Assembly: GCA_963777605.1 (NCBI GenBank) | Contig: CAVZRV010000011.1 | Location: forward strand, 160,001-224,000 | Reading direction: 5' to 3' | Length of the DNA stretch: 64,000 bases | DNA from: an uncultured Acidobacteriota bacterium | GTDB taxonomy: Bacteria; Acidobacteriota; UBA6911; RPQK01; JAPXNP01 | Part shown: in pieces, positions 31,374 to 49,149 of the stretch | How positions within the stretch are numbered: position 1 is the stretch's first letter | How the letters are laid out: every line of letters begins with the position of its first letter | Program-made: the position numbers and the translations under genes | Notes under the pieces: generated by a model | The model's input: only the letters and a program-made list of their open reading frames with translations | The model's database searches: none | Told to the model about the DNA's origin: nothing

Positions 31374-31402
31374 AAAAGGGCGGCTCGACGGGCCGCCCTT
31401 TT
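31374..31402. terminator. bidirectional Rho-independent terminator
   Basis: AAAAGGGCGGCTC-GAC-GGGCCGCCCTTTT between the convergent dnaJ and oxidoreductase genes. Confidence 0.85.
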
Positions 31403-31430: not shown

Positions 31431-32786
31431 TCAGGCTTTCTCGGTTCCCGGAACCGGAATGACTGCCTTCATATCAAGTGGTCCCAGTTCATAAGTCTGG
31501 GGGCCGAGTTGCAGACTCGAAGCCATCATCTCGTCCCACGTGGTCTGCTTGCCGGTGTAGGCGGAGATGCGGCCCATGATCGCCGTCAGCGTCGAAACGG
31601 CGGTATTCTTGGCCTCATTCAGAGGCTTCCCGGTCCGAATCGCCGTCACGAGGTCGATGTGCTCCTGCACGTAAGGCGAGTTCACGCCACCTTCTTCCGC
31701 GCTCTCCGCTCCCGCGCCAGCCGGCGGCTGCCAGGTCCAGACGACCGACCCGTCCGGTCCATAGATGGTGTCCTTACAGTTGGTCGAGCCCTTCGATCCG
31801 ACAAGGTACTCAGACACGTTGTTCACGCAGCCGTCGATCTGACGGCACATGCTCATCGTGTGCATCCCATTTTCCAGCTCGAAGTCAATTGCGAAGAAGT
31901 CATACTGATCGCCCGTTACGCGTCGCTGTCTCCCGCCCATGCCGACTGCCGAAACCGGGTGAGAGTTGGTGAACCAGTTGATGACGTCAATGTTGTGGAC
32001 GTGCTGTTCTACGATGTGGTCTCCGGAAAGCCAGCACCAGTTGACCCAGTCGCGAATCGCCCACTCCATGTCGGACCAGCCCTTTTCGTGCTCCTTGTAC
32101 CAGAGCTGTCCCTGGTTCCAGTAGCATCGGGCCGCGACCAGTTCGCCGATTGCTCCATCCATGATCCGGTTGTAGGTTTCGATATAGGAGGTCTCGTGGC
32201 GCCGCTGCGTTCCAGTCGCAACTTTCAGGCCGGCTGCTTCCGCCTTTTCACCGGAGTCCATGATTGAGCGAGCACCCACCGGGTCCACGCAGACCGGCTT
32301 TTCCATGAAGACGTTCTTTTTGGCCTCCACCGCAGCCTTGAACATGGCCGGGCGGAAATGGGGTGGGGTAGCCAGGATGACATAGTTGACGTCGGCTGCG
32401 AGAGCTTTCTCGAAAGCATCGAAACCGATAAAACACTGATCATCCGCGACCTCGACACCCTTCTGCTCCTTCAACTGCTTGCGGCAGTTCTCGAGCCGAT
32501 CGGTGAAGACATCGGCCAGCGCCACGATCGAAAGCCCCGGTCCGGCGTCCATGAAGTTCATCCCGGCGCCGGTTCCGCGACCGCCACATCCGATAAGGGC
32601 CGCTCGGATCGGTTCCCCGTCGGGAGCGCTGTTGGGCCCAACTTCTCGCTTCGGGCCAAGTGAAATCGCCTTTTCCTCGGGTGCACTCGAGGAACACGCT
32701 GCCAGAACGGCACCTGCAACGGCAGCCGTTCCGATGAAGCTCCTTCGATTCAGACCAGATTCCTGCTCCTTCTCACGATCACTCAT
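31431..32786 (-). CDS. Gfo/Idh/MocA oxidoreductase, Tat-exported lipoprotein
   Basis: NRRSFI twin-arginine signal with LAAC lipobox; GCGGRG Rossmann motif, ATPPHFR, MEKP, GTQRR, EQHVHNID. Confidence 0.92.
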   Translation of the reverse strand: MSDREKEQESGLNRRSFIGTAAVAGAVLAACSSSAPEEKAISLGPKREVGPNSAPDGEPIRAALIGCGGRGTGAGMNFMDAGPGLSIVALADVFTDRLENCRKQLKEQKGVEVADDQCFIGFDAFEKALAADVNYVILATPPHFRPAMFKAAVEAKKNVFMEKPVCVDPVGARSIMDSGEKAEAAGLKVATGTQRRHETSYIETYNRIMDGAIGELVAARCYWNQGQLWYKEHEKGWSDMEWAIRDWVNWCWLSGDHIVEQHVHNIDVINWFTNSHPVSAVGMGGRQRRVTGDQYDFFAIDFELENGMHTMSMCRQIDGCVNNVSEYLVGSKGSTNCKDTIYGPDGSVVWTWQPPAGAGAESAEEGGVNSPYVQEHIDLVTAIRTGKPLNEAKNTAVSTLTAIMGRISAYTGKQTTWDEMMASSLQLGPQTYELGPLDMKAVIPVPGTEKA

Positions 32787-32868
32787 ATTCCCTATTCTCC
32801 TTTCCCCCATTAATAATCGCGCGATCAACCCCCTGCCGCAAGCCCGATCGCCTTTTTAAGGCGAAAAC

Positions 32869-34401
32869 TCATTCCGGCGGCCCTTCGCGCACGATTCGGA
32901 ACCCGACATCGGTACAGTCCGAAAACCACCAAACGCTCTTGGGAGTCTGTGGGTCAGTCTTCATCCAGGCACGATGCCTTGTCATGTCACGTGCCCCCGA
33001 CCGCAGATCGAGTGGCTCGCTCTTAAATGACCCGCCTCGAACCACATGCTCGGCCGCTGACTCGGGTCCTCTTGGATCCTTGACAACTTGCCCCTCCGGC
33101 AGCTTCGCGAGGAATTCTGGGTCATACCAGGTCTGGCAGAACTCCCGAACGTTCCCGTACACGTTGTACAGTCCCCATGGGTTCGGCTTCTTGCTTTGGG
33201 CAGGCTGGGTCTTGTTCTTGCTGTTGGCACGATAGACGGCATACTCGCCCAGGACCTCTTCGTTGACAACCGCACCGCCCATAATCCGGCTCAGGAACCG
33301 ATCGTACCAGGAGGGCGCGGGCTCGTCAGACTCGAAGAAGTAAGCCGCGGTGGTTCCGGCGCGCGCAGCATATTCCCACTCAGCTTCGGTGGGCAGCCGG
33401 TAGGTTCGTCCGGTCCTGGCCGAAAGCCACTCGCAGTACTTGGTTGCCGCGTAGTGAGTCATCGTGATGGCCGGGCGCGAGCCTTTTCCCCACCCCTGGT
33501 CGGGAGAACCGTAAGGCGGCGTCGGCCCGGTAATGGCATCGGACTTCAATCCCTGTTCGTTCTTGCCCCGCGTGACCGTCTCCGAGTAGTAGGCGTCAAA
33601 TTCCCGCCAGGACACTTCGAACTTGCCCATCCAGAACCCGCCCAACTCCACGGACCGCTGCGGCCCTTCGTCGGGCTGGTGCCCCGGTTCGGAATCCGGC
33701 GTCCCCATGTTGAAGGTTCCGGCTGGAATCGCGACCATTTCAAACTTCACGTTGGTATTGGGGATTTCTTCGGTGTAGCTGACAAACGCACCGGGCTCGA
33801 TTTCAGAAATCAGCGGCTCGGTCGGGCCGACCTCTTCTTCCGTCACCTCTTCGGTGGGGAGATACTGCTCTTCGGCGCCTTCGTGGAAGTGCCCCGTCTT
33901 CAGGTGGCAGTTGATACACCGCAGTTCGTCACGATTCTTCCGGTAGTGAATGTGGGCATCGACGCCCTTGTTGTTCAGGTTGGGCGGGAAGAGTTCCTGG
34001 TGACAGTGTGTGCAGGATTCTTCGAAAGTATAGTGGGCCGCCTCCTCAATGGTCGATTTGAAATCCCAGTCGATTTTGCTCAGGTCCTTGAAGTAGTACC
34101 CATAGATATCACGCGCCCCCGCCTTTCCTTTCTCGACGATGTAGTCGATTCCTTCCGGGGGCAGGTGGCAGTCGACGCAACCAACAACCACGCCGCTCTC
34201 GTTCTTGTAGTGGGCTCCCTGCTTCCAGGTATCCGTTGCAAATGGGTGGACGTGGCAACTTTCACAATACTCATTCGTAGAGGTCGCCTTCATTCCGGCG
34301 TTGCCGAGGTAGATCAAACCGCTGGCCAGAATGACCCCCATCACAAGGCCAAGAAACAGCTTGCTTTTGAAAACGGAGAGCTTGAACAGACGCATTCTCA
34401 T
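32869..34401 (-). CDS. membrane-anchored tetraheme NapC/NirT-type cytochrome c fused to an FGE-sulfatase-fold domain
   Basis: N-terminal TM helix; CESCH, CVDCH, CTHCH, CINCH; then GTFNMG, DEGP, EVSW, RLPTEAEWEYAARAG, PNPWGLYNVYGNVRE, RGGS, VGFR. Confidence 0.9.
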   Translation of the reverse strand: MRMRLFKLSVFKSKLFLGLVMGVILASGLIYLGNAGMKATSTNEYCESCHVHPFATDTWKQGAHYKNESGVVVGCVDCHLPPEGIDYIVEKGKAGARDIYGYYFKDLSKIDWDFKSTIEEAAHYTFEESCTHCHQELFPPNLNNKGVDAHIHYRKNRDELRCINCHLKTGHFHEGAEEQYLPTEEVTEEEVGPTEPLISEIEPGAFVSYTEEIPNTNVKFEMVAIPAGTFNMGTPDSEPGHQPDEGPQRSVELGGFWMGKFEVSWREFDAYYSETVTRGKNEQGLKSDAITGPTPPYGSPDQGWGKGSRPAITMTHYAATKYCEWLSARTGRTYRLPTEAEWEYAARAGTTAAYFFESDEPAPSWYDRFLSRIMGGAVVNEEVLGEYAVYRANSKNKTQPAQSKKPNPWGLYNVYGNVREFCQTWYDPEFLAKLPEGQVVKDPRGPESAAEHVVRGGSFKSEPLDLRSGARDMTRHRAWMKTDPQTPKSVWWFSDCTDVGFRIVREGPPE

Positions 34402-34496
34402 ATCCCGGTCCAGATTCCCTTCCAGAAACTGCTAAGTTCGCAGGATTCTCCCACAATAAAAAACACGGGAAAGTTTCACCGATTTCGAGAATCCGG

Positions 34497-35528
34497 TCAA
34501 GAAGGAAAGCCGCCCGACTCGATCAAGGCTGCCTTTCCATCAGTTGAGGTCCGGGAGATTCGGGCTTCCACCCCTGCCATCCGCTCGACCAGTCTCAACC
34601 CGCTTTCCGCAGGAAGAACACTGAGGGCAGTTGCCAGCGCATCCGCTGTCGCCCCGTCAGGGGCGATGACCGTTACCGTACCGGCATGCCTGACGCCGAT
34701 TCCCGTTCGCGGATCGACAATATGGGAATAACGCTCCCCCCCGACTTCGACGAACTGGTAGTAGTCGCCGGAAGTGGCCACCGCACAATTCGACAGAAGA
34801 ATCGTGGACCTGCTTTTCGCCTCGTCCTGAATCTCCACTCGCCAGCCAGGCTTACCCGGAGGAGGTTCCCCCAGCCGAAGATCCCCGCCCACGTCGATCA
34901 GGGCCCGCGTGATGCCGTGTTCATTCAACACCTGGAGGGCTTTGTCGGCGGCCCAGCCCTTGCCGATGCCGCCAAAATCGAGGCGCATCCCCGGAGCCGC
35001 GAGACGGACGGCCTGTGTTCGAGGGTTGAGAAGAACCTTGTCGTATCCGACCTTCGCAAGGGCCTCCTGAAGTGCACCGGCATCGGGCAGGCGGCCTGAA
35101 CGCCGGGCCTCACGCCAGAGTTCTACAACCGGCTTGACGGTGATATCGAATGCGCCACCGGTCAATCGAGCCAGCCGGAGACTGTCGTCAATGATCCGGT
35201 AGAGTTCTTCGCTGACCACCTTTGGGCGCACGGTCGCGATCGGTTCGACTTTTTCGAGTTCACTCTCTTCACGGTAGTCGCTGATCACCTGCTCGAGTTG
35301 ATCGACCCGCTCAAAAACCGCCCAGGACGATTCCCGAGCCACTTTCTCGTCCGGTGCGAATAGGACAATCCGCAACTCGGTGCCCATGCAGCGGCCGTGA
35401 TACTCGAATCGATGGAGCGGGCTCTTTCCGGATGCTGCGGCAAGACCGCAAAAGAGCAGCCAGAAAACGGCCGGGCCGTACCTCGTGCCAAGGCCGGTTC
35501 CTCGAGGAGATCGCATATACGAGGCCAT
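34497..35528 (-). CDS. apbE: FAD:protein FMN transferase ApbE
   Basis: MGT, TGGAFDITV, LDFGGIGKG, GGD, ATSGDY, YSHIVDPRTG, ADALATA; hydrophobic N-terminus. Confidence 0.95.
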   Translation of the reverse strand: MASYMRSPRGTGLGTRYGPAVFWLLFCGLAAASGKSPLHRFEYHGRCMGTELRIVLFAPDEKVARESSWAVFERVDQLEQVISDYREESELEKVEPIATVRPKVVSEELYRIIDDSLRLARLTGGAFDITVKPVVELWREARRSGRLPDAGALQEALAKVGYDKVLLNPRTQAVRLAAPGMRLDFGGIGKGWAADKALQVLNEHGITRALIDVGGDLRLGEPPPGKPGWRVEIQDEAKSRSTILLSNCAVATSGDYYQFVEVGGERYSHIVDPRTGIGVRHAGTVTVIAPDGATADALATALSVLPAESGLRLVERMAGVEARISRTSTDGKAALIESGGFPS

Positions 35529-36182
35529 TCACTCCCCTCCCAGCGAAAAGGAGACATACTTGATGGAGCGGCCGGCTTGGAGGTGCCGCTCCTCGAACGT
35601 TGTCCGGACTCCCAGCAATTCCTCTTCCGGTTCCTTGCTGTAGAGGTCGTCGGAAATCTCGTGGATCGTTCCTCCGACCTGGCCTACCGACTCCTGCATG
35701 TATTCGAACAGAAAACGATCGTCCGTCTTGACGTGAAGCCTGCCTCCTGGTCGTAGCAGGCTCCGGTATGTGCGGAGAAACTCGGGGGAGAGGAGACGGT
35801 GCTTAGCCTGTCTCCGCTTGGGCCGGGGATCAGGATAGGGCAACCAGATGGAATCGAGTTGCCCCTCGTCAAAGTAGAGCTTCAGGTCGTGAATGTCAGC
35901 CCGCAGGAAAGCCGCGTTGGTCAACCCTTCGCGCAAGGCCCTGGTTGCCGCAATCCAGAGCCGATCTCCCCTTCGGTCAATCCCCACCACGTTGAACGTG
36001 CGGTTGAGCCGGGCCAAGGCGAGCGTGTACTCTCCCTTTCCGCTTCCCAGTTCCAGAATCAGGGGCCGGTCGTTCTTGAAGTGCTTCTCGACCCACTCGC
36101 CACCGGGACCCGCGTCGTCCCGGTCGAAACTGTTCGGAAGTGTCGGGAGAGCTTCGAAGCGGAGCCTTTTCTTTCTCGCCAT
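35529..36182 (-). CDS. trmB: tRNA (guanine-N7)-methyltransferase
   Basis: LELGSGKGEY, YPDPRPK, KTD, TTFEER. Confidence 0.92.
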   Translation of the reverse strand: MARKKRLRFEALPTLPNSFDRDDAGPGGEWVEKHFKNDRPLILELGSGKGEYTLALARLNRTFNVVGIDRRGDRLWIAATRALREGLTNAAFLRADIHDLKLYFDEGQLDSIWLPYPDPRPKRRQAKHRLLSPEFLRTYRSLLRPGGRLHVKTDDRFLFEYMQESVGQVGGTIHEISDDLYSKEPEEELLGVRTTFEERHLQAGRSIKYVSFSLGGE

Positions 36183-36194
36183 CAAGCCGCCCGT

Positions 36195-39100
36195 TCAGGC
36201 TTCGGATGAAACCGCCCCTTCAACCAGTCGCTTGCTCCTTCGAACCGCCCCCATGAACATGACATATAAAGAGGGTACGACGAAAAGGGTCAACACGGTG
36301 GCAAAGCCGAGTCCAAAGATCACCGCAATCGCCATGCTGGCCCACCACTGGCTGGATTCACTCTTGGTCGCCCACTCCATCAGGTGAAAGTCATAGCTGA
36401 TCCCGCTCGCCATCGGCACCAGTCCCAGCAGTGTCGTGCCGGCTGAAAGAAGGACCGGTCGGAGCCGGACGGTGCCGGCCTGCACGGCAGCTTCAACCAG
36501 ACCCCGCCCCTGTTCCTCGAGCTGGCGTGCGTAATAAAGGAGCACGATCGCGTTGTTTACGACGACACCGGCCAGACTGATCACTCCGACCCCGGTCATG
36601 ATGATCGAGAAAGGCATGGCAAAGATCAGGAGTCCGATGAGCACGCCGATCAGGGACAGGACGACGGTCGTCATGATGATCAGCGGAATTACCAGGCTGT
36701 TGAACTGGGCGACGAGGATCAGCGTGATCCCAAGCACAGCGATCAGAAAGGCCCGGAACAAAAAGCTGGCGGCTTTGTCCTGCTCTTCCTTCTCTCCCGC
36801 ATAACGGATCTCGTATCCTGCAGGCAGTTCCAGCCCGGCAAGAATCTTTTGGACATCGACCAGCACCTCGTTGCTCAGTCGGCCCTCGGCATCTCCGGTC
36901 AGGGTTACCACCCGCCGCTGGTTAAGGTGCCGGACCGTCCCCATGCCACCGGTGTAGACGAACTCCCCAAAGGAACTGAGGGGCACGGCACGGCCCAGGC
37001 TGTTCGGAATTTGGAGCTGGAGCAGGTCATCCACGTCGAGCCGCTGCTCGACCGGAAGCCGGATGGTGATGTCGTACTCGTCCCGAAACTGCCGGTAGGT
37101 CCCCACCTTGTTTCCGAAGATCGCAGTCTTCAGGTAGTTCCCGACCACAGCCGTGTTCACACCCAACAGCATGGCCCGCTGTCGGTCAACGTTGAATGCC
37201 AACTCGGGACGGGACGCCTCATAATCGCTCTTCAGGTTGACCAGACCCGGCACGTTCTCGATTGCCCGCTCAGCTCGTTCACTGATTGTCGCCAGCGTCC
37301 GGAAGTCTTTCCCTATCAGTCGAACGGTTACTGCTGCGCCGGTCGGCGGACCCTGCTCTTCTGCCTTGACGTCGATCTCCACGCCGGGAAGATTGGAGAG
37401 ACGGTCCCGCAACTCGGCGATGATCTCAGACGACGGCCGTTTCCGGGTTTCGAAATCCTTGAAGATCAGTGTGATCTGCGCGGAGTTCGGTCCGGCGCTG
37501 CTGGGACCCAGACTTCCTCCGCCTCCTGAGAGCCCCACATTACTGACAAAGTGCTGGAGATTGTCCCGGTACGGAGCCAGTCGGGCTTCGACCTCCCGGG
37601 TAATCCGGTCGGTCTCTTCGATATTGGTTCCCTGGGGCAACCGAATATCGATGTTGGCCCGAACCGGGTCGAATTCGGGGAACAGAACCACGCCATGGTC
37701 CATCTTCCCGTAGAGGATAACCAGTGAGATCAGCGCAGTGACGGCGAGGATGAGGGTAACGAATCGATACTCGATTGCGATCCGGAGCAACCAGCGATAT
37801 CCCTTCAGAAGAAGCGGAAGTTCATCGGATTCCTTGGGAACACCCCCCGACAGGACCGAACAGACCGAGGGATTGATGATGAGAGCAACAAAGAGGGACG
37901 AGGTCAGCGTGACGATCAGTGTGATGGGCAAATACTTCATGAAGTCGCCCATGATGTCCGGCCAGAAGATCAGCGGAGCGAAAGCGACCAGGGTCGTCGC
38001 CGTCGAGGTGATCACCGGCCAGGCGACTTCCCCGGTTCCCAATTTTGCCGCCTCGATCCGACTATAACCGAGCTGGATGTGGCGGTAGATGTTCTCGACG
38101 ATTACGATCGCGTTGTCTACCAGCATCCCGAGCGCCATGATGAGGCTGAAAAGGACGATCATGTTGAGGGTGTAACCCATCAACTGGAGCACCGTGAAGG
38201 TGATCAGCATGCTCAGGGGAATCGCGAGCGCCACGATCGTGCTCGTGCGAAACCCCATGAAGAGTACCAGCACAACGACGACCAGGACCAGACCTGAAAG
38301 GATGTTGTTCTCCAGGTCTTTCACCATGGAGTTGATTTCTTTCGACTGGTCGAGGGTTATCTCGAACTTCACTCCCTGCGGGACTGCGCTGTGCGCCTCT
38401 TCGAGGATCCGGTCGATAGCAGCCTTGATCGGAACGATGTCGGCCCCTACCCGTTTCTGAACGCTCAAGGTCAAGCTCGGTGCCCCGTCCAGGCGGGAAT
38501 AGGTGGAACGGTCCTTGAAGGTGTCCCGGACCACTCCGATGTCGGAGAGGTAGATCGGTTTTCCGTTGACCACGGCCAGGATCAGGTGTTCGACGTCGTC
38601 CGGATTTTCGAACTCGCCCGGGACCCGGACGTTGAACTTGGTACCCGGAGTCTCCAGGCTGCCCGCCGAGACATTGACATTCTCGCTTGGCACCAGGGCA
38701 AGCAGTTGCGCCAGCGTAAGCCCGTAGGCAGCAAACCGGTCATGATCGACCTCAAGGCGAATTTCACGTTCCAGGCCGCCAAGGACGTCACAGTTCAAGA
38801 CCCCCGGGATCTCCTCGATGACATCCTCGAGTTCGTCGGCGATATCCTTGAGTCTAACCGGTGAAACGCCTCCATGGATGTTGATCAGGAAAATCGGGAA
38901 ATCAGCTACACTGATTTCCTTGATGGTGGGCTCTTCGGCGTCCTCGGGAATTTCACCCCGCACCTGGTCTACCTTGTCCCGAACGTACTGGAGCGCTTCT
39001 TCGATCCGGATATCGGGATAGAACTCGACGATAACATTGGAGATCCCTTCCGCACTGACCGAAGTGATCTCCTTAACCCCTTTAAGCCCGGCCAACTCCT

Positions 39101-39305
39101 TCTCGATCTTGATCGAGACAGCGGTCTCCACGTCTTCAGGGGACACCCCTTCGTATGGGGTAGTGATCACGACAAAGGGAATCGGAACGTCCGGAGCACC
39201 CTCCCGGGGAAGCGTGGCGTAGCTGTACACTCCGGTCACCACGATAAGCAGGATCAGGACCCATACTACAACCCGGTTGTCGATGGCAGCATCGGAGAGA
39301 ATCAC
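36195..39305 (-). CDS. RND efflux permease (AcrB/AcrD/AcrF family)
   Basis: 1036 aa with 12-TM layout; GMLVDNAIVIVEN, AFAPL, GVVVNNAIV, RLRPVLL, GLVPM. Confidence 0.93.
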   Translation of the reverse strand: MILSDAAIDNRVVVWVLILLIVVTGVYSYATLPREGAPDVPIPFVVITTPYEGVSPEDVETAVSIKIEKELAGLKGVKEITSVSAEGISNVIVEFYPDIRIEEALQYVRDKVDQVRGEIPEDAEEPTIKEISVADFPIFLINIHGGVSPVRLKDIADELEDVIEEIPGVLNCDVLGGLEREIRLEVDHDRFAAYGLTLAQLLALVPSENVNVSAGSLETPGTKFNVRVPGEFENPDDVEHLILAVVNGKPIYLSDIGVVRDTFKDRSTYSRLDGAPSLTLSVQKRVGADIVPIKAAIDRILEEAHSAVPQGVKFEITLDQSKEINSMVKDLENNILSGLVLVVVVLVLFMGFRTSTIVALAIPLSMLITFTVLQLMGYTLNMIVLFSLIMALGMLVDNAIVIVENIYRHIQLGYSRIEAAKLGTGEVAWPVITSTATTLVAFAPLIFWPDIMGDFMKYLPITLIVTLTSSLFVALIINPSVCSVLSGGVPKESDELPLLLKGYRWLLRIAIEYRFVTLILAVTALISLVILYGKMDHGVVLFPEFDPVRANIDIRLPQGTNIEETDRITREVEARLAPYRDNLQHFVSNVGLSGGGGSLGPSSAGPNSAQITLIFKDFETRKRPSSEIIAELRDRLSNLPGVEIDVKAEEQGPPTGAAVTVRLIGKDFRTLATISERAERAIENVPGLVNLKSDYEASRPELAFNVDRQRAMLLGVNTAVVGNYLKTAIFGNKVGTYRQFRDEYDITIRLPVEQRLDVDDLLQLQIPNSLGRAVPLSSFGEFVYTGGMGTVRHLNQRRVVTLTGDAEGRLSNEVLVDVQKILAGLELPAGYEIRYAGEKEEQDKAASFLFRAFLIAVLGITLILVAQFNSLVIPLIIMTTVVLSLIGVLIGLLIFAMPFSIIMTGVGVISLAGVVVNNAIVLLYYARQLEEQGRGLVEAAVQAGTVRLRPVLLSAGTTLLGLVPMASGISYDFHLMEWATKSESSQWWASMAIAVIFGLGFATVLTLFVVPSLYVMFMGAVRRSKRLVEGAVSSEA

Positions 39306-39307
39306 GG

Positions 39308-40384
39308 TTACCCTGCGTTCTGTATGTTTACTTGCTGCCCGGGGCCGACCAAGCGCTGCCCGGTGACAATCAGGAGATCACTGGCATTCAGACCTTGGAG
39401 AACCTGGACTTCAGTCCCTCGGATCATTCCCAGGGTCACTTCCCGCCGCTGGGCCTTCCCCTCCTCCACGACGTAAACCACCCGACCGTTCTCGAGCGGT
39501 ATCACTGCGGAAAGCGGAATCATGACCACATCACTCAACGTGCGACGGGAGATCCGGGAACGAACGATCATCCCGGCGTGGAGAACTCCGCTGGCATTGT
39601 CGAGAGTCAACTCAATCGGTGTGGTGCGTGTCACCGGGTCGGCGATCTCGCTAATGTACGTAACCTTGCCGGCGAAGTTACGTCCACCCAGAGAGTCAAC
39701 CTCAAGCCGGACCGTCATCCGGGGCCGGATGAATCGGATGTCTTTCTCCGGAATCTGAATTTCCACCTTGACCCGATCAACCACCACGATCTGAGCAACC
39801 GTGTCCCCCGATGAGACGAACTCTCCCCGGTCCTTGACCAACTCGTTCACTACCCCGCTGACGGGCGCGCGCACAGTGGTCCGGTCGAGGTTCGTTTCAG
39901 CCACCCTGAGATTGGCGCGGCTCACAATTCTGCGGGCGTCGAGTTCATCGACCTCGCTCTTTCGAACCACACCTTTCTCAAGCAGTTCCGACGATCGCTC
40001 CGCCATGCGCTCGTCGAAGTCGGCCTGAGCTTCAGCCTGATCGAAGAGAGCCCTGAGGAGGGTTCCGTCCAGCTTGAGAATCAGGTCACCCTCCGTTACC
40101 GCCTGTCCCTCCTCAACGAGTACTTCCTCGATCTGCCCCTGTTGCTCTACGGGTACGTCGACGATTTGCCAGGGTTCCACCACGCCGGGCAGGACCAGAA
40201 GATCGGACATTTCACTGACCGGCCGCACCTCCATGACTTCGACGTCGGCAACAACGACTTCCTCCGGAGGCAGATCCTTTTCCGGGGTCGGCATTCGGGC
40301 AATCAGGAACACGACTACCCCGGCCACCGACACGACGAACAGAGACACGAATAGCTTGAAAAAGCGGGATCGGTTCGCAGCCAT
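39308..40384 (-). CDS. RND periplasmic adaptor (MFP)
   Basis: N-terminal anchor, VEEGQAVTEGD lipoyl half, VRAPVSG, IPLSAV, GLNASD. Confidence 0.92.
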   Translation of the reverse strand: MAANRSRFFKLFVSLFVVSVAGVVVFLIARMPTPEKDLPPEEVVVADVEVMEVRPVSEMSDLLVLPGVVEPWQIVDVPVEQQGQIEEVLVEEGQAVTEGDLILKLDGTLLRALFDQAEAQADFDERMAERSSELLEKGVVRKSEVDELDARRIVSRANLRVAETNLDRTTVRAPVSGVVNELVKDRGEFVSSGDTVAQIVVVDRVKVEIQIPEKDIRFIRPRMTVRLEVDSLGGRNFAGKVTYISEIADPVTRTTPIELTLDNASGVLHAGMIVRSRISRRTLSDVVMIPLSAVIPLENGRVVYVVEEGKAQRREVTLGMIRGTEVQVLQGLNASDLLIVTGQRLVGPGQQVNIQNAG

Positions 40385-40444: not shown

Positions 40445-40778
40445 AACAAGCCTGAATAGGGGGTAATGAATGCAAGATCCAGTTCTTTTGCAGCTCCCGG
40501 CTCAGGCTCAACACGCCTGCCGGCACGGATCACGACCAGCTAATTGAGAACCCGGGCCATCTAGCAGGGGGAATGGGTTAAATCACTCAGGCTCCCCAAA
40601 CCAAACCCGGCTCCTTTCGGTGATTCGCTTCAGGAACCGCCAAAGTCCTTTTCTTCCGAAAACGGTGATGCTACCATGACTTCACCCCATTGTGCCGGAG
40701 TTCGCCATGGTACCTGTGAACCGTAGCGTCTTCTCTCTTCTCCGGCGAAGTCTGTCTTACTCAAGAAGGAGGTTACCG

Positions 40779-41819
40779 ATGGCCTTCGTGCGTAAGTTTT
40801 CCTGGGCGTTATTTATCCTCCCCGTACTGGTCGGATGCGGTCCCGGCACAGACCAGCAGATGTCCGCTGCCCTCGACCAGGGCGATGAGACGATGGTCGC
40901 CACGCTTCTCGAAAATGGAGCGAATCCCAACCTGAAACTGGCCAGTGGATCGACAATCCTGATGTTCGCCTCCGAAAAGGGCAGGGCCTCCGCGGTTAAT
41001 AGCCTGCTTGCCAAAGGAGCGAATGTCGATTCCAAAGATCTCTTGGGGGAGACGGCACTCCTCCTGGCGGCCGGCAACGGGCACACCGATATCGTCAAGA
41101 CCCTCATCGAGGCCGGGGGGACCGTTGACATCCAGGATGTCGATGGTAAGACACCCTTGATTCGGGCCGCCGAAAACGGCCATACCGAAACAGTGAAGGC
41201 CCTCCTTGACGCCGGTGCCAAGCTGGAGCAGTCGGACAATTCGTCCCAGACCGCCATGATCCACGCCGCGGTGGCTGGACACCTCCCGGTTGTCCAACTC
41301 CTCGTTGACGCCGGTTCGGATGTCAATTCAAAGAACTTCGAAGACTGCACCGCCTTGATTCTCGCCAGCGCCAACGGGAAGGCGGACGTCGCCCGGCTTC
41401 TTCTGGAGCGCGGTGCCAGCGTGAACGCGGTTGGAAAGGACGGCTGCACCGCACTGATGAGGTCAGCCGAAAAGGGGTTTGCGGATGTCGTTCGGGTCCT
41501 TCTCGAAAACAAGGCCGCCGTCAACACCAAAGACAGCATGGATCGTACCCCCCTGATGCGCGCTTCTGAACAGGGCCACAGCGATGTCGTACAACTCCTC
41601 ATCGACAACAAAGCCGAGGTAAATGCCGTTGATAAATCGATGCAGACTGCACTTCTGTGGGCGGCACTGAGGGGGAACACCGAGGCTGTCCAACTCCTCA
41701 TCAAGCACCGTGGCGACGTCAATGCGGAAGACGCCAACGGGTGGACGCCGCTGAGGTGGGCGGAGAACAATGGTCATACCGAAACCGTAGCCCTGCTGAA
41801 GGAATCGGGTGCGCACTAG
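40779..41819 (+). CDS. ankyrin-repeat lipoprotein (about 10 repeats)
   Basis: SD AAGGAGG, lipobox LVGC, 33-aa repeats GxT(P/A)LxxAxxxGHxxxVxxLLxxG. Confidence 0.92.
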   Translation: MAFVRKFSWALFILPVLVGCGPGTDQQMSAALDQGDETMVATLLENGANPNLKLASGSTILMFASEKGRASAVNSLLAKGANVDSKDLLGETALLLAAGNGHTDIVKTLIEAGGTVDIQDVDGKTPLIRAAENGHTETVKALLDAGAKLEQSDNSSQTAMIHAAVAGHLPVVQLLVDAGSDVNSKNFEDCTALILASANGKADVARLLLERGASVNAVGKDGCTALMRSAEKGFADVVRVLLENKAAVNTKDSMDRTPLMRASEQGHSDVVQLLIDNKAEVNAVDKSMQTALLWAALRGNTEAVQLLIKHRGDVNAEDANGWTPLRWAENNGHTETVALLKESGAH

Positions 41820-41904: not shown

Positions 41905-43315
41905 ATGAACCAATCGATGCGCGTGCGCGAAGTCCAATTCTTCGAGAGGCCCATCCGGCTTCGACTCCCATTCCGATTCGGAATCATCACGCTGACTGAG
42001 GAACCTCAGATCTTCGTCAGAACACTGGTTGAATTCGGAGACGGATCCCGGGTCTGGGGGCAAGCCGCAGAGGCACTGGCCCCCAAGTGGTTCGACAAAG
42101 ATCCCAGCCGTTCCAACGAGCAGAACTTCACTGATCTGCGCAGTTCCCTGACTACGGCGGCATCACATGTACCTCCTTTCGGGGACCCGGAGAACCGCCT
42201 ATTCTCTCTTCGCTGACAACTACGAGAATCAGTTGAGCGGAACCACCAAGCAGGGTCTCAATCACCTCGTTGGCAGTTTCGGGCAGGCGCTTCTGGATCG
42301 CTGCGTAATCGACGCCGTGTGCCGTTTTCATGAGGCTTCATTCGCAGAAGCCGTCCGTTCCAATCTCCTGGGCGTTTATTCCCTTGCCGTGACGCCGGAA
42401 CTGGCGAACTTTGACCTGAACGGCTTTCTCGCATCACTCAAGCCCCTGGACAGCATCTACGCACGCCACACCGTAGGCCTCGTCGATCCGATTACGGCAT
42501 TGGATCAGGAGCACCGAGTCAATGACGGCCTCCCGGAGACCCTGGAAGAAGTGATCGGGTTTTACGGGCATTCCTATTTCAAGATCAAGGTGCAGGGTGA
42601 TCTCGAACTCGACCTCGCTCGACTGGGGGCTATTACAGCGGTTCTCGACGGACTTCCTCAGCCTTACTTCGTTACCCTGGACGGCAACGAGCAATTCGAG
42701 GACGTGGATGAGATTCTCGAACTCTGGCGTCGCCTGCGGGAAGATCCCCGATTCCAGCGCTTCGTGAGTTCAATCCTCCTGATCGAACAGCCCATCAAGA
42801 GAAGCAGGGCAATGCAGGACGTCTCGCGCTTGAGCAGCCAGTGCCCGATAATCATCGACGAATCTGATTCCGACCTGGATGCGTTTGCGACCGCGCGCGT
42901 CTTCGGGTACTCGGGCGTATCGAGCAAACAGTGCAAGGGCGTGTACAGATCGATTCTGAACGCTGCCCGCTGCCGCGCGTGGTTGAGTTCGGAACCGTCC
43001 AGGCGATGGGTGATGACCGGAGAGGACCTGACCATCCAGGGAGGAGTCGCGCTGCAACAGGACCTCGCCCTGGCGGCGACGCTGGGATTGACGCACATCG
43101 AACGCAACGGGCATCACTACGTTCGGGGTATGAACGGGGCCTCCAGAAACGAGCAGAAAGCATTTCTCAAAGCCCATCCGGACCTCTATGTTTCGGAGGA
43201 GGACTGGGTCCGAGTGAAAATCGAAAAGGGCAGAATGCAACTCGGCTCTCTCAACTGCCACGGACTCGGGACCCGTGAAGAGCCAGACTGGGGTGCCATG
43301 GTCCGGCTCCGTTGA
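41905..43315 (+). CDS. enolase/mandelate-racemase superfamily protein (+1 frame break near 42160-42167)
   Basis: N-terminal RLPFRFG and APKWFDK; barrel FKIKV, LDGNEQ, IEQP, IDES, SSKQCKG, GEDL, ERNGHHY. Confidence 0.8.
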
Positions 43316-43454
43316 TCTGACGGGCGCCGGCTGCGGGCATCGAGATCCCTCGGCCGTCTTTATTCATGCGACGGCTATTGATTCCTCACTGGACAGGTGC
43401 TACAAATGCGCTAACTACTTACGTTCCAGCGAGAGCGAACACCGGGGAGGGTCA

Positions 43455-46400
43455 ATGAAACGGCCAACGTCCATCGCAGGTTTGTGGAGTCTGCTAATCA
43501 CCATCCTTTTTCTTTCCCCGATTGTATATCCGTCGTCGAAACTGATCTTTCCTCGCTTCTCTTTCGACAACGGAACCTACACAGGCCTGGCAATTGCGAA
43601 CCTGGGGACTCAATCGGCCCGGGTGACCCTGACCGCTTACGGAACCGACGGGTCCGTGATGTCGGGGACGGCATTCCAGAATCCGGTTGAAATCGACATC
43701 CCGGCCAACCAGCAACTTGCCAAGCTGATTTCAGAGATCTTTCAAGGCACACTGCCGGCAAGTTCCGTGGGATGGGTCGAACTGACCAGCCCGGCCGACT
43801 CGATCACCGGCTTCTTCCTTTTTCTGAACGGCCAACTCACTCAACTCGACGGGGCCGATCTCCCGGTTTCAGCGGGTGAAATCGTTTTCAACCTGATCAA
43901 GGTCGGTGACGGCTACCATACCGAACTGAACTTCATTAACCCGAGCCCCACGGAAATCAAAGTCGGTCTGTCTCTGGTCCAGCCGGAACAGGGAACGACC
44001 GCCAAGGAAATTACCCTTTCCGCACGAGCGGTCAGCCGAATCGATGCCGCTTCATTGTTCGGACTTACGACAGTCGACACCGGCACCTATCTGAAGGCTG
44101 CCGCCACATCCGGAAGCGTAGCGGGTTTCGAGTTCGTCCGCTCCGATTCCGGAGACCTGCTGGGTCTCAACGCAAAAGACGTCGAGGAAACGCTCGATTC
44201 GATCATTTTTCCTCAACTGGTCGCCTCCGGCCCCTGGAAGAGTGAACTGGGACTGATCAACTACACGGATTCACCGACACTCGTGACAATCACTGCGCAC
44301 CGGTCGGACGGGAGCCTGTTCGGATCGGACGTGCTCCAATCGAATCCCGTAACACGTGGACTGGAAGCCGGCGAAAGCGTCGTCCTGGACCTTCAGGAGA
44401 TCTTCGGCTTCTCGGGAACTTCGGCCATTGACGGGTGGCTGCAGGTCGAGGCAACCGATTCGGCCGTCAACGGTTATGTCAGCTACGGGATCCCCAGCGT
44501 CGGCTCGCTGGCCGCCATCGCCAGTGTCAAGGAAGCCTCCAAAGCAGCCGTTTTCTCCCACATGGCGACCGCGTCAGGCTTCTTCACCGGGGTTGCTCTT
44601 CTCAACCCGACGACGCTGCGGGCGAACACGAGAATCGTCGCGATGACGCCCGAGGGAGAGATCCTGGGAAGTTACGACACTGTCCTTCAACCCGGAGAGA
44701 GAGTGAGCAAACTCATCAACGAGTTGATCGGGGAAACCGCCAACAGGAGCAACGGGTTTGTCTGGATTCACAGTGACCTGCCTCTCTACAGCAGCTCATT
44801 GTTCGGTGCTGCCAAGGTACTGGCCAATGTTCCGGCCCAGGAGGCCCCGGGTGAATACAAGCCGGACACCAACCTGCCCACTCTCCTCGTGAAGCCGCCC
44901 ATCGCAGTCGTCCAGCCCGGCAGCACCCATACATTTTCGGTGCAGGGGGCACCGGGGACCGTAGCCTGGTCCGTGAATGGGTTGCCGGGAGGAGGAAGCG
45001 ACGTAGGGACGATCGATGGGTCCGGAAGTTATACCGCACCCTCGGACCGGCCGCAGCCGTCCTACATAACAGTAACTGCAGAATCGACCAATTTGCGGGG
45101 AGGTGCAACCGTCGACCTTCTCAAGGCGGACGAGCTCCTTTCCGGGCTGGGTGTCCTGCAATCCATCGTCTACCTTCACTCTCTGAAACAACTGTACGAG
45201 GTGGAGTTGAATTCGCTCTCCGCCCTCGATCGAGGCGCCGCTCCGGCGTCCGAGACCCAGGCGGACAGCCAGAGCGAACTGTTCCAGGTTGCTCCCCCTT
45301 CGGTCAAGACGTCTGTTCGGACCTTCTCCGACAACATAGTCAAGATGCTCTCTTACACGGCATCGGACGGGAAAGAGTATGTCCTGATGCTCGGGAAGGA
45401 CTCCGGCGACCTGGTCCGGCTCGAACCAGAAACCCGTCAAACCCGCATTGTCTACACGGGCCTCAATAGCCCGACTTCGATGGCACTCGACGAAACGACC
45501 GGCAACGTTCTCGTTGCCGAAGCCGACCGGATCACCGAGGTCGCCAAGTCGTTTCTCGAATCAGGCTTGATTTCCGCCTCCGCCCGGACCGGCCCGGGAC
45601 AGGGTGGAGTCGACAACTCGACAGTCCTGCCATCGGAAGGAGTGACGGGAATCGAGGTGGATCTTTGTACCGGCGAGATCTACTACTCGGTCGCGGACGA
45701 AGGGACCATTTACGCCTATAACCGGTTCACCGGGGAGACCACCGTTCTGGCTTCGGGGTTGTCCGACCCGGGGCAACTGCTGGTGGTCTACCGGGATGAT
45801 GTTCCCTGCCCCGACAGCAGCCAGTTGTTGGTGGCGGAACCGGGTGCCGACAGAATCTCACTGGTGGCACCCTCGCTCAATGCCCTGATTTCCTGGGTCT
45901 CTGCCCCGGGCGTCCGTGACCTCGTTTATCTCCCCCCGGACAACCCGTTCAACCTTAAGACGAGCATCGCGTATGGTCTCTACTTCGACCTGTCAGGTTC
46001 GATTGGAATCGTCGATGTCGGTGATCAGTACGGGGATCCTCCGCCGGTCGAAGAACAGCCCGCCTGTCCCGGTGAAGTCACATTTGACGATCCCAACCTG
46101 GAAGCAGGAGTGAGACAAGCCCTCGGCCTGCAGGCCGATGAGCCGATCACTTGCGAACTGGCGGCTTCTATGACGCAACTTCACGTTCCATCAAGGGAAA
46201 TTTCCCGACTCGATGGGATCCGCTTCCTCGAGAATCTCGAGGTCCTGGACATCAGCCGGAACCTGATTCGAAATCTCGCTCCAATCGGTGCGCTGGCAAA
46301 GCTCCAGACGTTGAATGCATCTTACAACCTGGTTGAATCTCCCGGTCTGTCAGCCAACCTGGTCGAACTTTCCGATCTGGACCTCTCGCACAACCTGATC

Positions 46401-49149
46401 ACTGATCTCGATACTCTCGTAAACCTCGAGGTGGGCACTGCCGGAGTGGGGTTCGGTCGTTCCGCCCGCTTCCAGGGAATCCTGCCCTCCCTCATTATTC
46501 TGGACCTCTCCTTCAACCAGATCTTCGATCTCGGGCCACTCTCCACCCTCCTCTCCCTGCAGGATCTGGACCTTTCGGCGAATTTCACCATCACCAACAT
46601 CAACGCCCTCTCGGGCCTCGTCAACCTGCACACACTCCGTCTATTTCAGAACTCCATTTCCGAGATCGATGCGGTTTCCCACCTGACTGCGCTGGTCCTT
46701 CTCGACCTCTCCTCGAACCAGGTCACCGAACTGCATCCGCTTCTGGAGAACCTGGGGCTCGGAGAGGGAGACGTATTGCTGCTTCAGTCCAACCCGGTCA
46801 GCCTCAGTTCCTGCGACGTCATAGCTGAACTCGAGCAGCGTGGAGTCACCATCGACATCAAGGGAATCTGTGCCGTTGATCTCGACTTGAGCTTCACGGC
46901 GCAGCCGAGTGTAGCGCGTCAGGAAGACCTGCTTCTGTACACGGCCCGCATCTGGAACAAGGGGACGGAAGCGGCTCAGGGAGTTACGCTGGACATCGAT
47001 TACCCAACGGCTACCACCTTTCGTTCGGTCCGTGCTGACCGGGGAACCTGCCAGCGGGAACTCAGCCATATCACCTGTACCTGGGATTCGCTGGGTCCGG
47101 GTAGCATCATCTTCACCAACCTCCGTGTCGAAGTTCAGTCCCGAAGCGGCATTCTGGAGTCGAAAGCCTATACCGAAGCAGTCCAGGCCGAGTTGAACAT
47201 GGACAATAACGAAGCGCTGGTGACGACGCCAATTGCCGAAGCCGATCTCCAGGTTACCAAGACCATCTCTGAGGACCCGGTCACCGCAGGAAGTTACGTT
47301 ACTTATACTGTGGAGGTTCAAAACCTGGGACCTGAGCGTGCAACGGACGTCACCCTCACCGACAAGCTGCCGTCCGATTTCGGCTATGAGACCTTCTCGA
47401 CCACTTCGGGAAATTGCTCCTACGAAGAGGGAGTGGGATCCATCGTCTGTGCGATTCCGGACATTGCGGCGAATTCGACCGTCACTCTGAGTATCGAGGG
47501 AACCGTCTATGCCACTTCGGGGACCATCACCAACAGCGCATCGGTGAACTTGCGGGAGTTCGATCCCGATCCTCTCAACAATCGGGCGCACTCTACCGTC
47601 CAGGTGACGGCACCTGATCTCGTCGTCACCAAGACCGATTCCGTCGATCCGGTCACCACCGGCGGGGACCTGACCTACACCGTAATCGTGACCAACGCCG
47701 GTAATGTTGCCGCAACCAACCTGGTGATCTCCGATAATCTTCCCGCCGGGGTCAATTTTGTTTCCGCATCACTGCCTGGCGGGACGTGCACGCCATTGAA
47801 CCTCCAACTCGAGTGCACGCCTTCCCTCTCTCGCTCCGGGAGCCAACGCCGTACTGACGATCAACACGCTGGTCGTCGCAACCGCGGGGACTCTGACCAA
47901 CACGGTGACGGCTAACGAGGATGAGATCGATGGCAACAGTTCCGACAATACGGCCACCCAGAACACAACCGTCGCGCAGACCGACCTGGCCGTGACCAAG
48001 ACCGCGAGCCTGGAACCGGCTATCACCGGCGCCGACCTCGATTACCAGATCCAGGTCACGAACAACGGACCTCACGCCGCAACGGGTGTGGTGCTGTCCG
48101 ACCAGTTGCCGGCCGGAGTCACCTACCAGGGCGCATCGATCGGCTCCTGCTCCGAGATCAGTGGATTCGTTCAATGCGCGATCGGCAGCCTGGCCTCGGG
48201 TCAGTCTGGATCAGTAACACTTACGGTCCGAGTCAACACTCTACAGCCAACCATCACGAACACCGCGTCGGTAACCGGAGACCAGTCTGATCCAGTCACC
48301 GGAAACAATGCGGCCTCAGTCAACTCGACTGTTACCCAGGTTGCAAATCTGGCGATATCGAAGACCGGGACGCTGAGTATCGTCAGGACGAGTGACGATC
48401 TCGATTTCAGCATCGCGATTACCAACAACGGGCCGAGTGATGCAACCGGCGTTGTCATGAGTGACACGCTCTCGTCCGACCTGATCTATGACGACGTGAA
48501 TTTTCCCGCGACGGTCTCCCCGGTCGGAACCGGAACGTGCGGGTATGATGGGCAACTGGGAGAGATTCAGTGTGCTTTCCCATCAATCCCGAGCGGAGCG
48601 ACTCGAACCGTGACGATTCCCGTCCACGTAAATCCCGAGCCTAGCGGAGCGCTGACGATCCCGAACACTGCGACCGTCGCAGGAAACGAGACCGATCCCG
48701 ATGCGTCTGACAATTCCTCCAGCTTTCCGCTGACAATGGCACAGGCGGATCTTGGAATCTCTTTCTCCAGTTTTCCGGATCCCGGCGTCCCAGTACCGGC
48801 GGATGTCGAATTCAATTATGTTCTCGACGTTCAGAACAATGGACCTCACGCTGCACAACTTCCAAGGTTCTACATCGGCCTCTCCCCGGTCGCGACGGGT
48901 TACTACACGATTGGGACTCCCGCCGTCGTGCCAGGCTTGATTCAGGGCTCATGCACACCGAACATATCGTGGGCCACGTGTGATCTGGATGAAATCCCGT
49001 CCGGGGCATCAGTACAGATCACAGTGCCTGTCACAGTTCATGTTGGCCCTGTCACCGTGGACGCATCCGCGAGCATCAATTCGCGGGAGTTTGACCTCAA
49101 TTCAGATAATGACTCCGACGCCGTTCAGACCTCAGTCACTATTAACTGA
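43455..49149 (+). CDS. ~1900-aa secreted multidomain surface protein (4 beta-sandwich repeats, Ig, beta-propeller, internalin-type LRR, 6 DUF11 repeats; +1 frame break at ~47820)
   Basis: SD GGGGAGG and signal peptide; LxxLDLSxNxI repeats; DLxVTK...YTxxVxNxGP repeats. DUF11 repeat 3 reads through perfectly (ECT-LPSLAPGANAVLTI) if one C is removed at 47820. Confidence 0.85.

Follow-up and report, generated by a model that had tools for sequence, protein, structure and literature searches.

A conserved gene trio encoding ApbE, a tetrahaem cytochrome fused to an FGE/PvdO fold and a Tat-exported Gfo/Idh/MocA enzyme: a proposed periplasmic respiratory dehydrogenase

The 64,000-nucleotide window analysed here comes from an uncultured Acidobacteriota bacterium (assembly GCA_963777605.1, contig CAVZRV010000011.1, positions 160,001 to 224,000) and carries a three-gene cluster that we propose encodes a periplasmic respiratory dehydrogenase. 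The genes encode ApbE, a flavin adenine dinucleotide (FAD):protein flavin mononucleotide (FMN) transferase; a membrane-anchored NapC/NirT-type cytochrome with four CXXCH motifs, fused to an FGE/PvdO-fold domain; and a Gfo/Idh/MocA protein (hereafter Gfo) with a twin-arginine translocation (Tat) signal and a lipobox. All three had been placed at these positions in a reading of the sequence alone (the sequence-only reading), and the Pfam and motif reads agree with it (Table 1). That reading also described three adjacent co-directional genes ending at a single terminator. A strong hairpin does lie 3' of gfo, between it and a convergent DnaJ-like gene (11 pairs, -21.6 kcal/mol, z -3.3 against shuffles), and the adjacency and strand of the three genes were correctly given. 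However, the run of co-directional genes extends further: trmB (35529-36185) abuts apbE and a pair of RND pump genes (36195-40384) lies just upstream, all in the same direction. In close relatives trmB and the RND genes are kept upstream, and outside close relatives only apbE, the fusion gene and gfo remain together.

Table 1. Features of the apbE-fusion-gfo cluster and their positions in the window
Feature	Position	Strand	Details
apbE, FAD:protein FMN transferase; N-terminus hydrophobic (export or anchor segment)	34497-35528	minus	343 amino acids, PF02424
Fusion gene, NapC/NirT cytochrome + FGE/PvdO fold	32869-34401	minus	510 amino acids, PF03264 + PF03781
Gfo/Idh/MocA gene, Tat lipoprotein, proposed catalytic dehydrogenase subunit	31431-32828	minus	465 amino acids, PF01408 + PF22725
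Fusion residues 1-172, N-terminal membrane helix and tetrahaem cytochrome c domain of NapC/NirT type	33886-34401	minus	PF03264
CXXCH motifs of the fusion	34252-34266, 34165-34179, 34000-34014, 33904-33918	minus	
Acidic linker, fusion residues 173-215	33757-33885	minus	translation
FGE/PvdO-fold domain, fusion residues 216-510, proposed FMN-carrying, Gfo-binding electron-transfer domain	32872-33756	minus	PF03781
Candidate flavinylation loop DAITGPT, Asp288-Thr294, with Thr294 the proposed FMN acceptor	33520-33540	minus	
Subfamily motif DPQTPKSVW, fusion residues 483-491	32929-32955	minus	translation
Hairpin terminator, common to gfo and the convergent DnaJ-like gene	31374-31402	minus	

The sequence-only reading had made conserved synteny among homologues a test of its proposal, and such synteny is present in four phyla. 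Scanning one genome per species gave 378 pattern matches, 338 of them encoding a relative, and the best 80 loci were kept, picked solely by similarity to the fusion protein. The full fusion occurs in apbE-fusion-gfo order at 9 of the 80, and the FGE-fold domain alone, at 40-48% identity, at the other 71. Within 3 kb of the FGE-fold gene, ApbE is encoded at 48/80 loci, Gfo at 49/80, both at 33/80, and Gfo and/or ApbE at 64/80. By phylum, the counts for ApbE and Gfo are 19/21 and 14/21 in Acidobacteriota, 14/25 and 21/25 in Planctomycetota, 10/21 and 7/21 in Verrucomicrobiota, and 3/10 and 4/10 in Bacteroidota. Other neighbouring families each occur at no more than 5 of the 80 loci, and the order and orientation of the trio vary across phyla. 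With 3 ApbE genes in the 6.7 Mb of the window genome, the chance adjacency of ApbE should be well under 1%. With the unpublished genome G015 left out, the window genome has 19 relatives in the comparison; 14 of them have the fusion, and in 12 of the 14 ApbE is directly beside it. Of five genomes with ApbE-less loci, three hold an ApbE of 41-45% identity elsewhere, and the 1.5-kb flanks of these three remote copies contain neither an FGE-fold nor a Gfo gene; a fourth, G023, is taken up below. We are confident that the three genes form a functional unit.

The apbE product is a typical member of its family (PF02424, E 8.7e-78). Solved FAD:protein FMN transferases match nearly all of it (7esa, E 2.1e-41), with the H-I-[LV]-D-P-x-T-G segment aligned, and the cluster therefore contains the ApbE-family FMN transferase that marks flavinylation systems. 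In a tree of 74 ApbEs (quick maximum-likelihood search, midpoint root), all 51 FGE-adjacent copies, including that of the window, fall in one clade of 53 (Shimodaira-Hasegawa-like approximate likelihood ratio test, SH-aLRT, 98); the two remaining members have short flanks. This grouping, and with it the monophyly, is relative to non-FGE ApbEs drawn only from relatives of the window genome. A sister clade of 7 (SH-aLRT 98) holds five ApbEs that adjoin a distant Tat-Gfo, and the 14 ApbEs with neither a Gfo nor an FGE-fold gene in their flank fall outside both clades.

A separate locus of the window genome, L124 (G000:C27:378142-380962), encodes an ApbE with an RR-type N-terminus and a Tat-Gfo 25% identical to that of the window, with a DoxX membrane protein between them. 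Its available flank contains no FGE-fold gene, and no [S/T]GA[S/T]-like site was seen in its three proteins. The adjacency of ApbE and this distant Gfo recurs in relatives (L100, L102, L103 and L107).

The N-terminal part of the fusion protein has the features of NapC/NirT tetrahaem proteins: a hydrophobic N-terminus, read by eye as a membrane anchor, four CXXCH motifs (residues 46, 75, 130 and 162), and a family match above the cut-off (PF03264 over residues 15-172, E 2e-27, 96.5 bits against 24.1). The solved NrfH structure 2j7a matches this domain at E 9.1e-5, and the fusion falls below every cut-off of the NapC, NrfH and TorC equivalog models. The linker that follows (172-215) has 13 Asp or Glu and no Lys or Arg. 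The architecture is common. A length-matched protein search with the fusion gave 7966 matches at E <= 0.001, and the best 120 of these, named from Acidobacteriota, KSB1 and Latescibacterota, all combine PF03264 with PF03781. In 35 of these 120 fusion-type homologues (P0001-P0120) there are three CXXCH motifs, not four, and one haem site may be variant or lost.

Members of the FGE-fold subfamily have one of three N-termini: the four-haem NapC/NirT domain (loci L001-L009), one or two PSCyt1 haem domains (for example L069 and L040), or a signal peptide alone. The mono- or di-haem PSCyt1 form is found in Verrucomicrobiota and Bryobacterales and the signal-peptide-only form in Planctomycetota and Bacteroidota. 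Because the fold has been fused to two unrelated kinds of c-type cytochrome, it would be expected to exchange electrons with haem, and this pattern is the strongest sequence-level sign that argues for the FGE fold as a haem redox partner.

Several members of the subfamily have unusual arrangements. The PSCyt1 group includes metagenome-assembled genomes labelled Akkermansia muciniphila in their record titles. Four verrucomicrobial loci (L048, L059, L075 and L079) have a PSCyt1-FGE gene and a second FGE-fold gene in tandem, followed by apbE, and in the second copy the loop discussed below lacks its leading Asp (for example VHWVTAPT and YAVSMPT). Three proteins of 719-724 amino acids (L039:2374-4533, P0352 and P0354) have a long N-terminal region before the same FGE-fold subfamily domain, with a weak FG-GAP match in that region in L039 and P0352. 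P0352 and P0354 were the two single-stretch matches of a profile search of 1.84 billion representatives, and in both the FGE-sulfatase domain follows the long N-terminus; neither is a Gfo fusion. That search gave 231,912 matches at E <= 0.001 and is uninformative on the subfamily because it was swamped by multi-copy FGE proteins. When longer proteins were searched with the FGE domain, the matches were multi-domain FGE proteins of a generic kind, at 28-39% identity. An apparent Gfo-PSCyt1-FGE triple fusion of 870 amino acids (L032:5288-7900) was rejected as a frameshift artefact after three-frame translation against L011, where the true C-terminal part of Gfo, matching L011, was read in a different frame.

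The C-terminal part of the fusion belongs to the FGE-sulfatase family (PF03781 over residues 221-476, E 5.5e-44). It has an AlphaFold2 model (mean predicted local distance difference test score, pLDDT, 86.7), and its best structural match is PvdO (5hha; E 4.1e-25; Foldseek E 2.8e-19), with Foldseek matches to FGE structures at E about 1e-17; PorK/GldK are also among the matches of the fold. The PvdO equivalog cut-off is not reached (NF051459, 125.7 bits against 500). Nor does the domain have the catalytic cysteine pair and copper site of FGE: the segment GGSFKSEP, where we take the pair to be located, has no Cys. A 46-sequence alignment contains no invariant Cys or His, and the domain thus lacks what we take to be the metal-site residues of FGE and EgtB.

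The sequence-only reading had put a flavin on this domain, and a conserved candidate loop that departs from the ApbE target motif at a single residue does occur there. The subfamily loop reads D-[AG]-[ILV]-[ST]-x-P-[TS]-x-P-[YF] and is DAITGPT at residues 288-294 of the window protein, which differs from the canonical D-x-x-[S/T]-G-A-[S/T] in having Pro for Ala and so lies outside the strict target motif. An anchored loop was found in 114 of the 120 fusion-type homologues. Of these 114, 99 have Asp at position 1; position 4 holds Thr in 99 and Ser in 8, position 5 Gly throughout, position 6 Pro in 111 and Ala in 3, and position 7 Thr in 112 and Ser in 2. Three homologues (P0098, P0113 and P0119) read T-G-A-T, which is the canonical ApbE site, and none of the 120 generic long FGE proteins compared has the strict loop motif. 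In the model, low confidence falls mainly on this loop, which is presumably flexible. A second motif, DPQxPxSxW, is universal among the 120 fusion-type homologues, present in 82 of 85 locus proteins and absent from the 120 generic long FGE proteins.

The part of PMC12052999 that deals with the target describes FMN attached to the last residue of D-x-x-[S/T]-G-A-[S/T], with flavinylation abolished by changing the Thr to Ala, little affected by changing the Asp to Ala, and reduced to about 50% by changing the Gly to Ala or the Ala to Val. The order of conservation along the subfamily loop, read from the alignment, matches the mutational order reported there. We lean slightly towards FMN being attached to Thr294. 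The [S/T]GA[S/T] filter described in the main text of PMC8238504 would miss the loop of the window protein, because it reads G-P-T.

The third protein has the Rossmann glycine loop, EKP lysine and C-terminal alpha/beta domain of the Gfo/Idh/MocA family, with both PF01408 and PF22725 above their cut-offs. The GCGGRG...GA loop, the EKP lysine and a His are invariant across 45 Gfo sequences. The AlphaFold2 model (pLDDT 90.0) matches inositol dehydrogenases, aldose-aldose oxidoreductase (AAOR) and GFOR at 12-21% identity, and 1,5-anhydro-D-fructose reductase is also among the fold matches. Models of named enzymes score far below all their cut-offs, for example IolG at 58.6 against 355 bits and BT_2158_fam at 35.1 against 750. 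The Tat signal passes its model (TIGR01409, 18.8 bits; cut-off 16.7), with RRSF at residues 28-31 and a lipobox-like LAAC ending at Cys45, both read by eye; the true start is likely the ATG at 32786 (Met15). No flavinylation-like [S/T]-G-A-[S/T] site is found in the Gfo alignment, where the residue after a conserved T-G-A is Ala or Gly. Judging by family membership, the substrate is probably a sugar, polyol or glycoside. Neighbouring genes for a 3-keto-disaccharide hydrolase (3 loci), an SMP-30 lactonase (3) and an SSF transporter (4) hint at the substrate, and occur at too few loci to assign it.

Modelling of the Gfo/FGE pair, which the sequence-only reading had suggested, gave a complex that passed its controls. 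The model comprised Gfo residues 60-465 and fusion residues 196-510, with NAD and FMN included. Three runs scored 0.86, 0.00 and 0.89 (median 0.86), and the best of three controls scored 0.00. For calibration, 116 of 157 solved complexes scored at or above the mark, as did 2 of 215 mismatched pairs; these counts are only a rough guide because our own alignments and two ligands were used here. The runs share at least 9% of contacts and the partners have pLDDT of at least 84. On the fusion side the predicted interface comprises residues 294-303 and 305, starting at Thr294, and 481-487 in the DPQTP motif. Gfo contributes its glycine-rich dinucleotide loop GGRGTGA (open reading frame residues 82-88), Gln208, WNQGQLWYK (237-245), 332-338 and 384-386. 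As the interface covers both the loop and the DPQTP motif, both subfamily motifs are predicted to sit against the Gfo cofactor cleft and the mouth of its active site, with the DPQTP motif predicted to contact the dinucleotide loop. We know of no solved Gfo/FGE complex that the predictor could have memorised, and the two domains probably bind.

The window genome encodes about ten Gfo paralogues with Tat-type RR signals and a G-C-G-G-R-G-x-G-A-A loop (13 places listed), and this is the loop that forms the predicted FGE interface. As there are only two FGE-fold partners for about ten Tat-Gfo paralogues, one partner may serve several dehydrogenases. The second partner is at L125 (G000:C27:532346-534673), where a second Tat-Gfo is followed, with a gap of 0 nucleotides, by a stand-alone FGE-fold gene of 327 amino acids, 40% identical. 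It bears the motifs DAVSGPT and DPQMPKSRW, and no ApbE gene was seen adjoining it. At L027:8222-9361 a Gfo homologue beside the FGE-fold gene has one in-frame stop, which could stem from a sequencing error, mark a pseudogene or reflect recoding.

We propose that the products of the three genes work together as a single periplasmic respiratory dehydrogenase. The Tat-exported Gfo lipoprotein would oxidise its substrate, reducing its bound nicotinamide cofactor, NAD(P), and would dock on the FGE/PvdO-fold domain of the membrane-anchored fusion. This domain, having lost its metal-site residues, would carry an FMN put on Thr294 of the flexible loop by the dedicated neighbouring ApbE. The tethered FMN could then act as two-electron acceptor, reoxidising the enzyme-bound NAD(P)H, and hand single electrons to the four c-type haems, from which the NapC/NirT domain would deliver them to the membrane quinone pool. 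Some lineages attach one or two PSCyt1 haem domains to the FGE/Gfo/ApbE core and others none, so the exit route for electrons may vary between phyla. The oxidative direction is favoured by textbook potentials and fits the PSCyt1 and haem-free variants. For the complete path, from substrate through bound NAD(P)H, FMN on Thr294 and haems to quinone, we consider the chances to be even.

Several observations weigh against this respiratory dehydrogenase. Neither partner lies within 3 kb in 16 of the 80 loci, and of the 51 loci whose flanks extend 3 kb or more in both directions, 11 have neither ApbE nor Gfo. One of the three complex runs scored 0.00. No Gfo fusion occurs among the best 120 matches of the longer-protein search, a negative of little weight, and the L032 triple fusion, being an artefact, has no evidential use. 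In the candidate loop, stand-alone and PSCyt1 forms have Arg, Ser, Lys or Gln at position 5, not Gly, and 9 of 85 family members at the loci lack even the loose motif. PvdO, for which we know of no link to ApbE, has a similar stretch nearby (D-G-D-T-R-P-G), and because of this resemblance the loop may be partly ancestral structure, not a modification site.

If the loop is not the acceptor, the FGE fold could merely dock or scaffold Gfo on the cytochrome or membrane, with the FMN on Gfo or on the product of a gene outside the cluster. The loop does have Pro where every proven ApbE site has Ala, and several FGE-fold proteins, such as PorK/GldK, are structural or non-enzymatic. The sister ApbE clade points the same way, being linked to a distant Tat-Gfo and DoxX with no FGE-fold gene in the flank, so that the shared denominator of the two clades is Gfo and not the FGE fold; in G023, similarly, a 28%-identical ApbE adjoins a 39%-identical Gfo and the FGE-fold gene is elsewhere. 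A scaffold has difficulty, however, in explaining the loop pattern, with Thr or Ser in 114/114, Gly in 114/114 and an occasional G-A-T. Gfo itself offers no site resembling [S/T]-G-A-[S/T], and a redox role is favoured by the recurrent joining of the fold to haem domains. We regard a purely structural role for the fold as unlikely.

The same components could also run in reverse, as a quinol-driven reductase passing electrons from quinol through the haems and FMN to bound NAD(P) and on to a carbonyl such as a keto-sugar. NapC/NirT proteins usually oxidise quinol and do not reduce quinone, which counts against the proposed direction, and some Gfo/Idh/MocA proteins are reductases, among them the matched 1,5-anhydro-D-fructose reductase. 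Electron transfer from quinol or PSCyt1-type c-cytochromes to NAD(P) would nevertheless be uphill by the textbook midpoint potentials, and the PSCyt1 and haem-free variants are a better fit to oxidation, which makes the reductase quite improbable. We give as little credence to the FGE/PvdO fold being the catalyst, a PvdO-like periplasmic oxidase whose substrate is a peptide or small molecule and which Gfo and ApbE assist. Among solved structures its nearest relative is PvdO, which is needed for a periplasmic two-electron oxidation for which the relevant part of PMC6206403 gives no known cofactor or electron route. Against this stand the equivalog score far below its cut-off, the lack of any invariant His or Cys, the absence of pyoverdine-type neighbours at the loci or in the window, and the mapping of the family motifs to the predicted Gfo interface and not to a pocket. 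Finally, the adjacency could be inherited local gene order without functional meaning. Some of the order does reflect kinship, as trmB and the RND genes are likewise kept upstream in close relatives, but the trio recurs in four phyla in varied order and orientation with all other neighbours changing, and we find this explanation hardly credible.

The cluster is surrounded in the window by genes for housekeeping and efflux. Downstream of the latter lie a 375-amino-acid ankyrin-repeat protein (40692-41819) and, at 43275-49149, a 1546-amino-acid DUF11/LRR surface-type protein with a DUF11 neighbour, all unrelated to the module.

The proposed dehydrogenase bears on the turnover of Tat-exported Gfo enzymes, as the NAD(P) they bind has no pool in the periplasm with which to exchange. 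It also bears on the ApbE substrates that are still missing and on the periplasmic role of catalytically stripped FGE/PvdO-fold proteins. The lineages involved dominate soils, waters and guts and have many Tat-Gfo paralogues, and the FGE-fold family is large, with 7966 protein matches and 338 relatives in the one-genome-per-species scan. A wider proposal, which we make tentatively and consider possible rather than probable, is that the FGE/PvdO fold is a new and widespread class of ApbE substrate. It would use a variant acceptor, [S/T]-x-P-[T/S], whose loop-borne FMN swings into the mouth of the Gfo active site to reoxidise the trapped NAD(P)H and passes electrons to c-type haems and on to quinone or soluble cytochromes. 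In this way it would provide a general link between periplasmic NAD(P)-bound dehydrogenases and respiration in Acidobacteriota, Planctomycetota, Verrucomicrobiota and Bacteroidota. It would also suggest what is missing from PvdO made in E. coli, as the part of PMC6206403 on the purified protein reports it to be inactive and without cofactor.

The sequence-only reading had suspected that this architecture was undescribed. Full-text literature searches found no description of an ApbE/FGE-fold/Gfo system, and FGE, sulfatase and Gfo are absent from the main texts of two flavinylation surveys; the gene-cluster tables of one of these (PMC8238504), which lie outside the comparison, may list these Pfam families. 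The module is real, conserved and apparently undescribed.

Known systems resemble parts of it. The GFOR of Zymomonas mobilis and the AAOR of Caulobacter share the Tat-exported Gfo fold (1ofg/1h6d/1rye and 5a02/5a03), and the NADP of GFOR is described as non-exchangeable in the part of PMC8121099 that mentions it. Both differ from the window Gfo, to which they are only 12-16% identical, in recycling their cofactor with a second sugar and in having no redox partner, haem or ApbE. BT2158, a glycoside 3-dehydrogenase of Bacteroides thetaiotaomicron, is also similar: the account of it in PMC8121099 has a Tat-signal Gfo-family protein, thought to be periplasmic with bound NAD(P), whose electron acceptor is explicitly stated to be unknown. 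As described there, however, its operon contains DUF1080 and isomerase genes and not an ApbE or FGE-fold gene, and the window Gfo falls far short of the BT_2158_fam cut-off. Periplasmic sugar oxidation is wired to cytochrome c in the glucoside 3-dehydrogenases LacABC and ThuAB, as the same part of that paper describes, but through an FAD enzyme of the GMC type, with no NAD(P)-bound Gfo, FGE fold or ApbE.

The putatively flavinylated and the haem-carrying parts can be compared in the same way. The quinol dehydrogenases NapC, NirT, NrfH and CymA share the N-terminal membrane helix and four CXXCH motifs, whereas none is known fused to an FGE fold, and the window module is proposed to reduce quinone. 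PvdO is the closest solved structure to the FGE-fold domain and, in the relevant part of PMC6206403, is likewise periplasmic, without the FGE catalytic cysteines and implicated in an oxidation with no known cofactor; it differs in having no Thr or Ser at the acceptor position in a HMMER alignment, no haem fusion and no described Gfo or ApbE neighbours. The main text of Meheust et al. 2021 (PMC8238504) reports that DUF2271 and DUF3570 were found as ApbE substrates by the logic of synteny plus motif and then validated, and that unidentified substrates and genomes with orphan apbE genes remain. These substrates and the FMN_bind domains of NqrC/RnfG are, like the fusion, extracytosolic electron-transfer proteins encoded beside apbE with a loop motif ending in Thr or Ser, as far as those sources describe them. 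The window fusion differs from them in its FGE/C-type-lectin-like fold, in having Pro for Ala, and in its NAD(P)-bound dehydrogenase partner.

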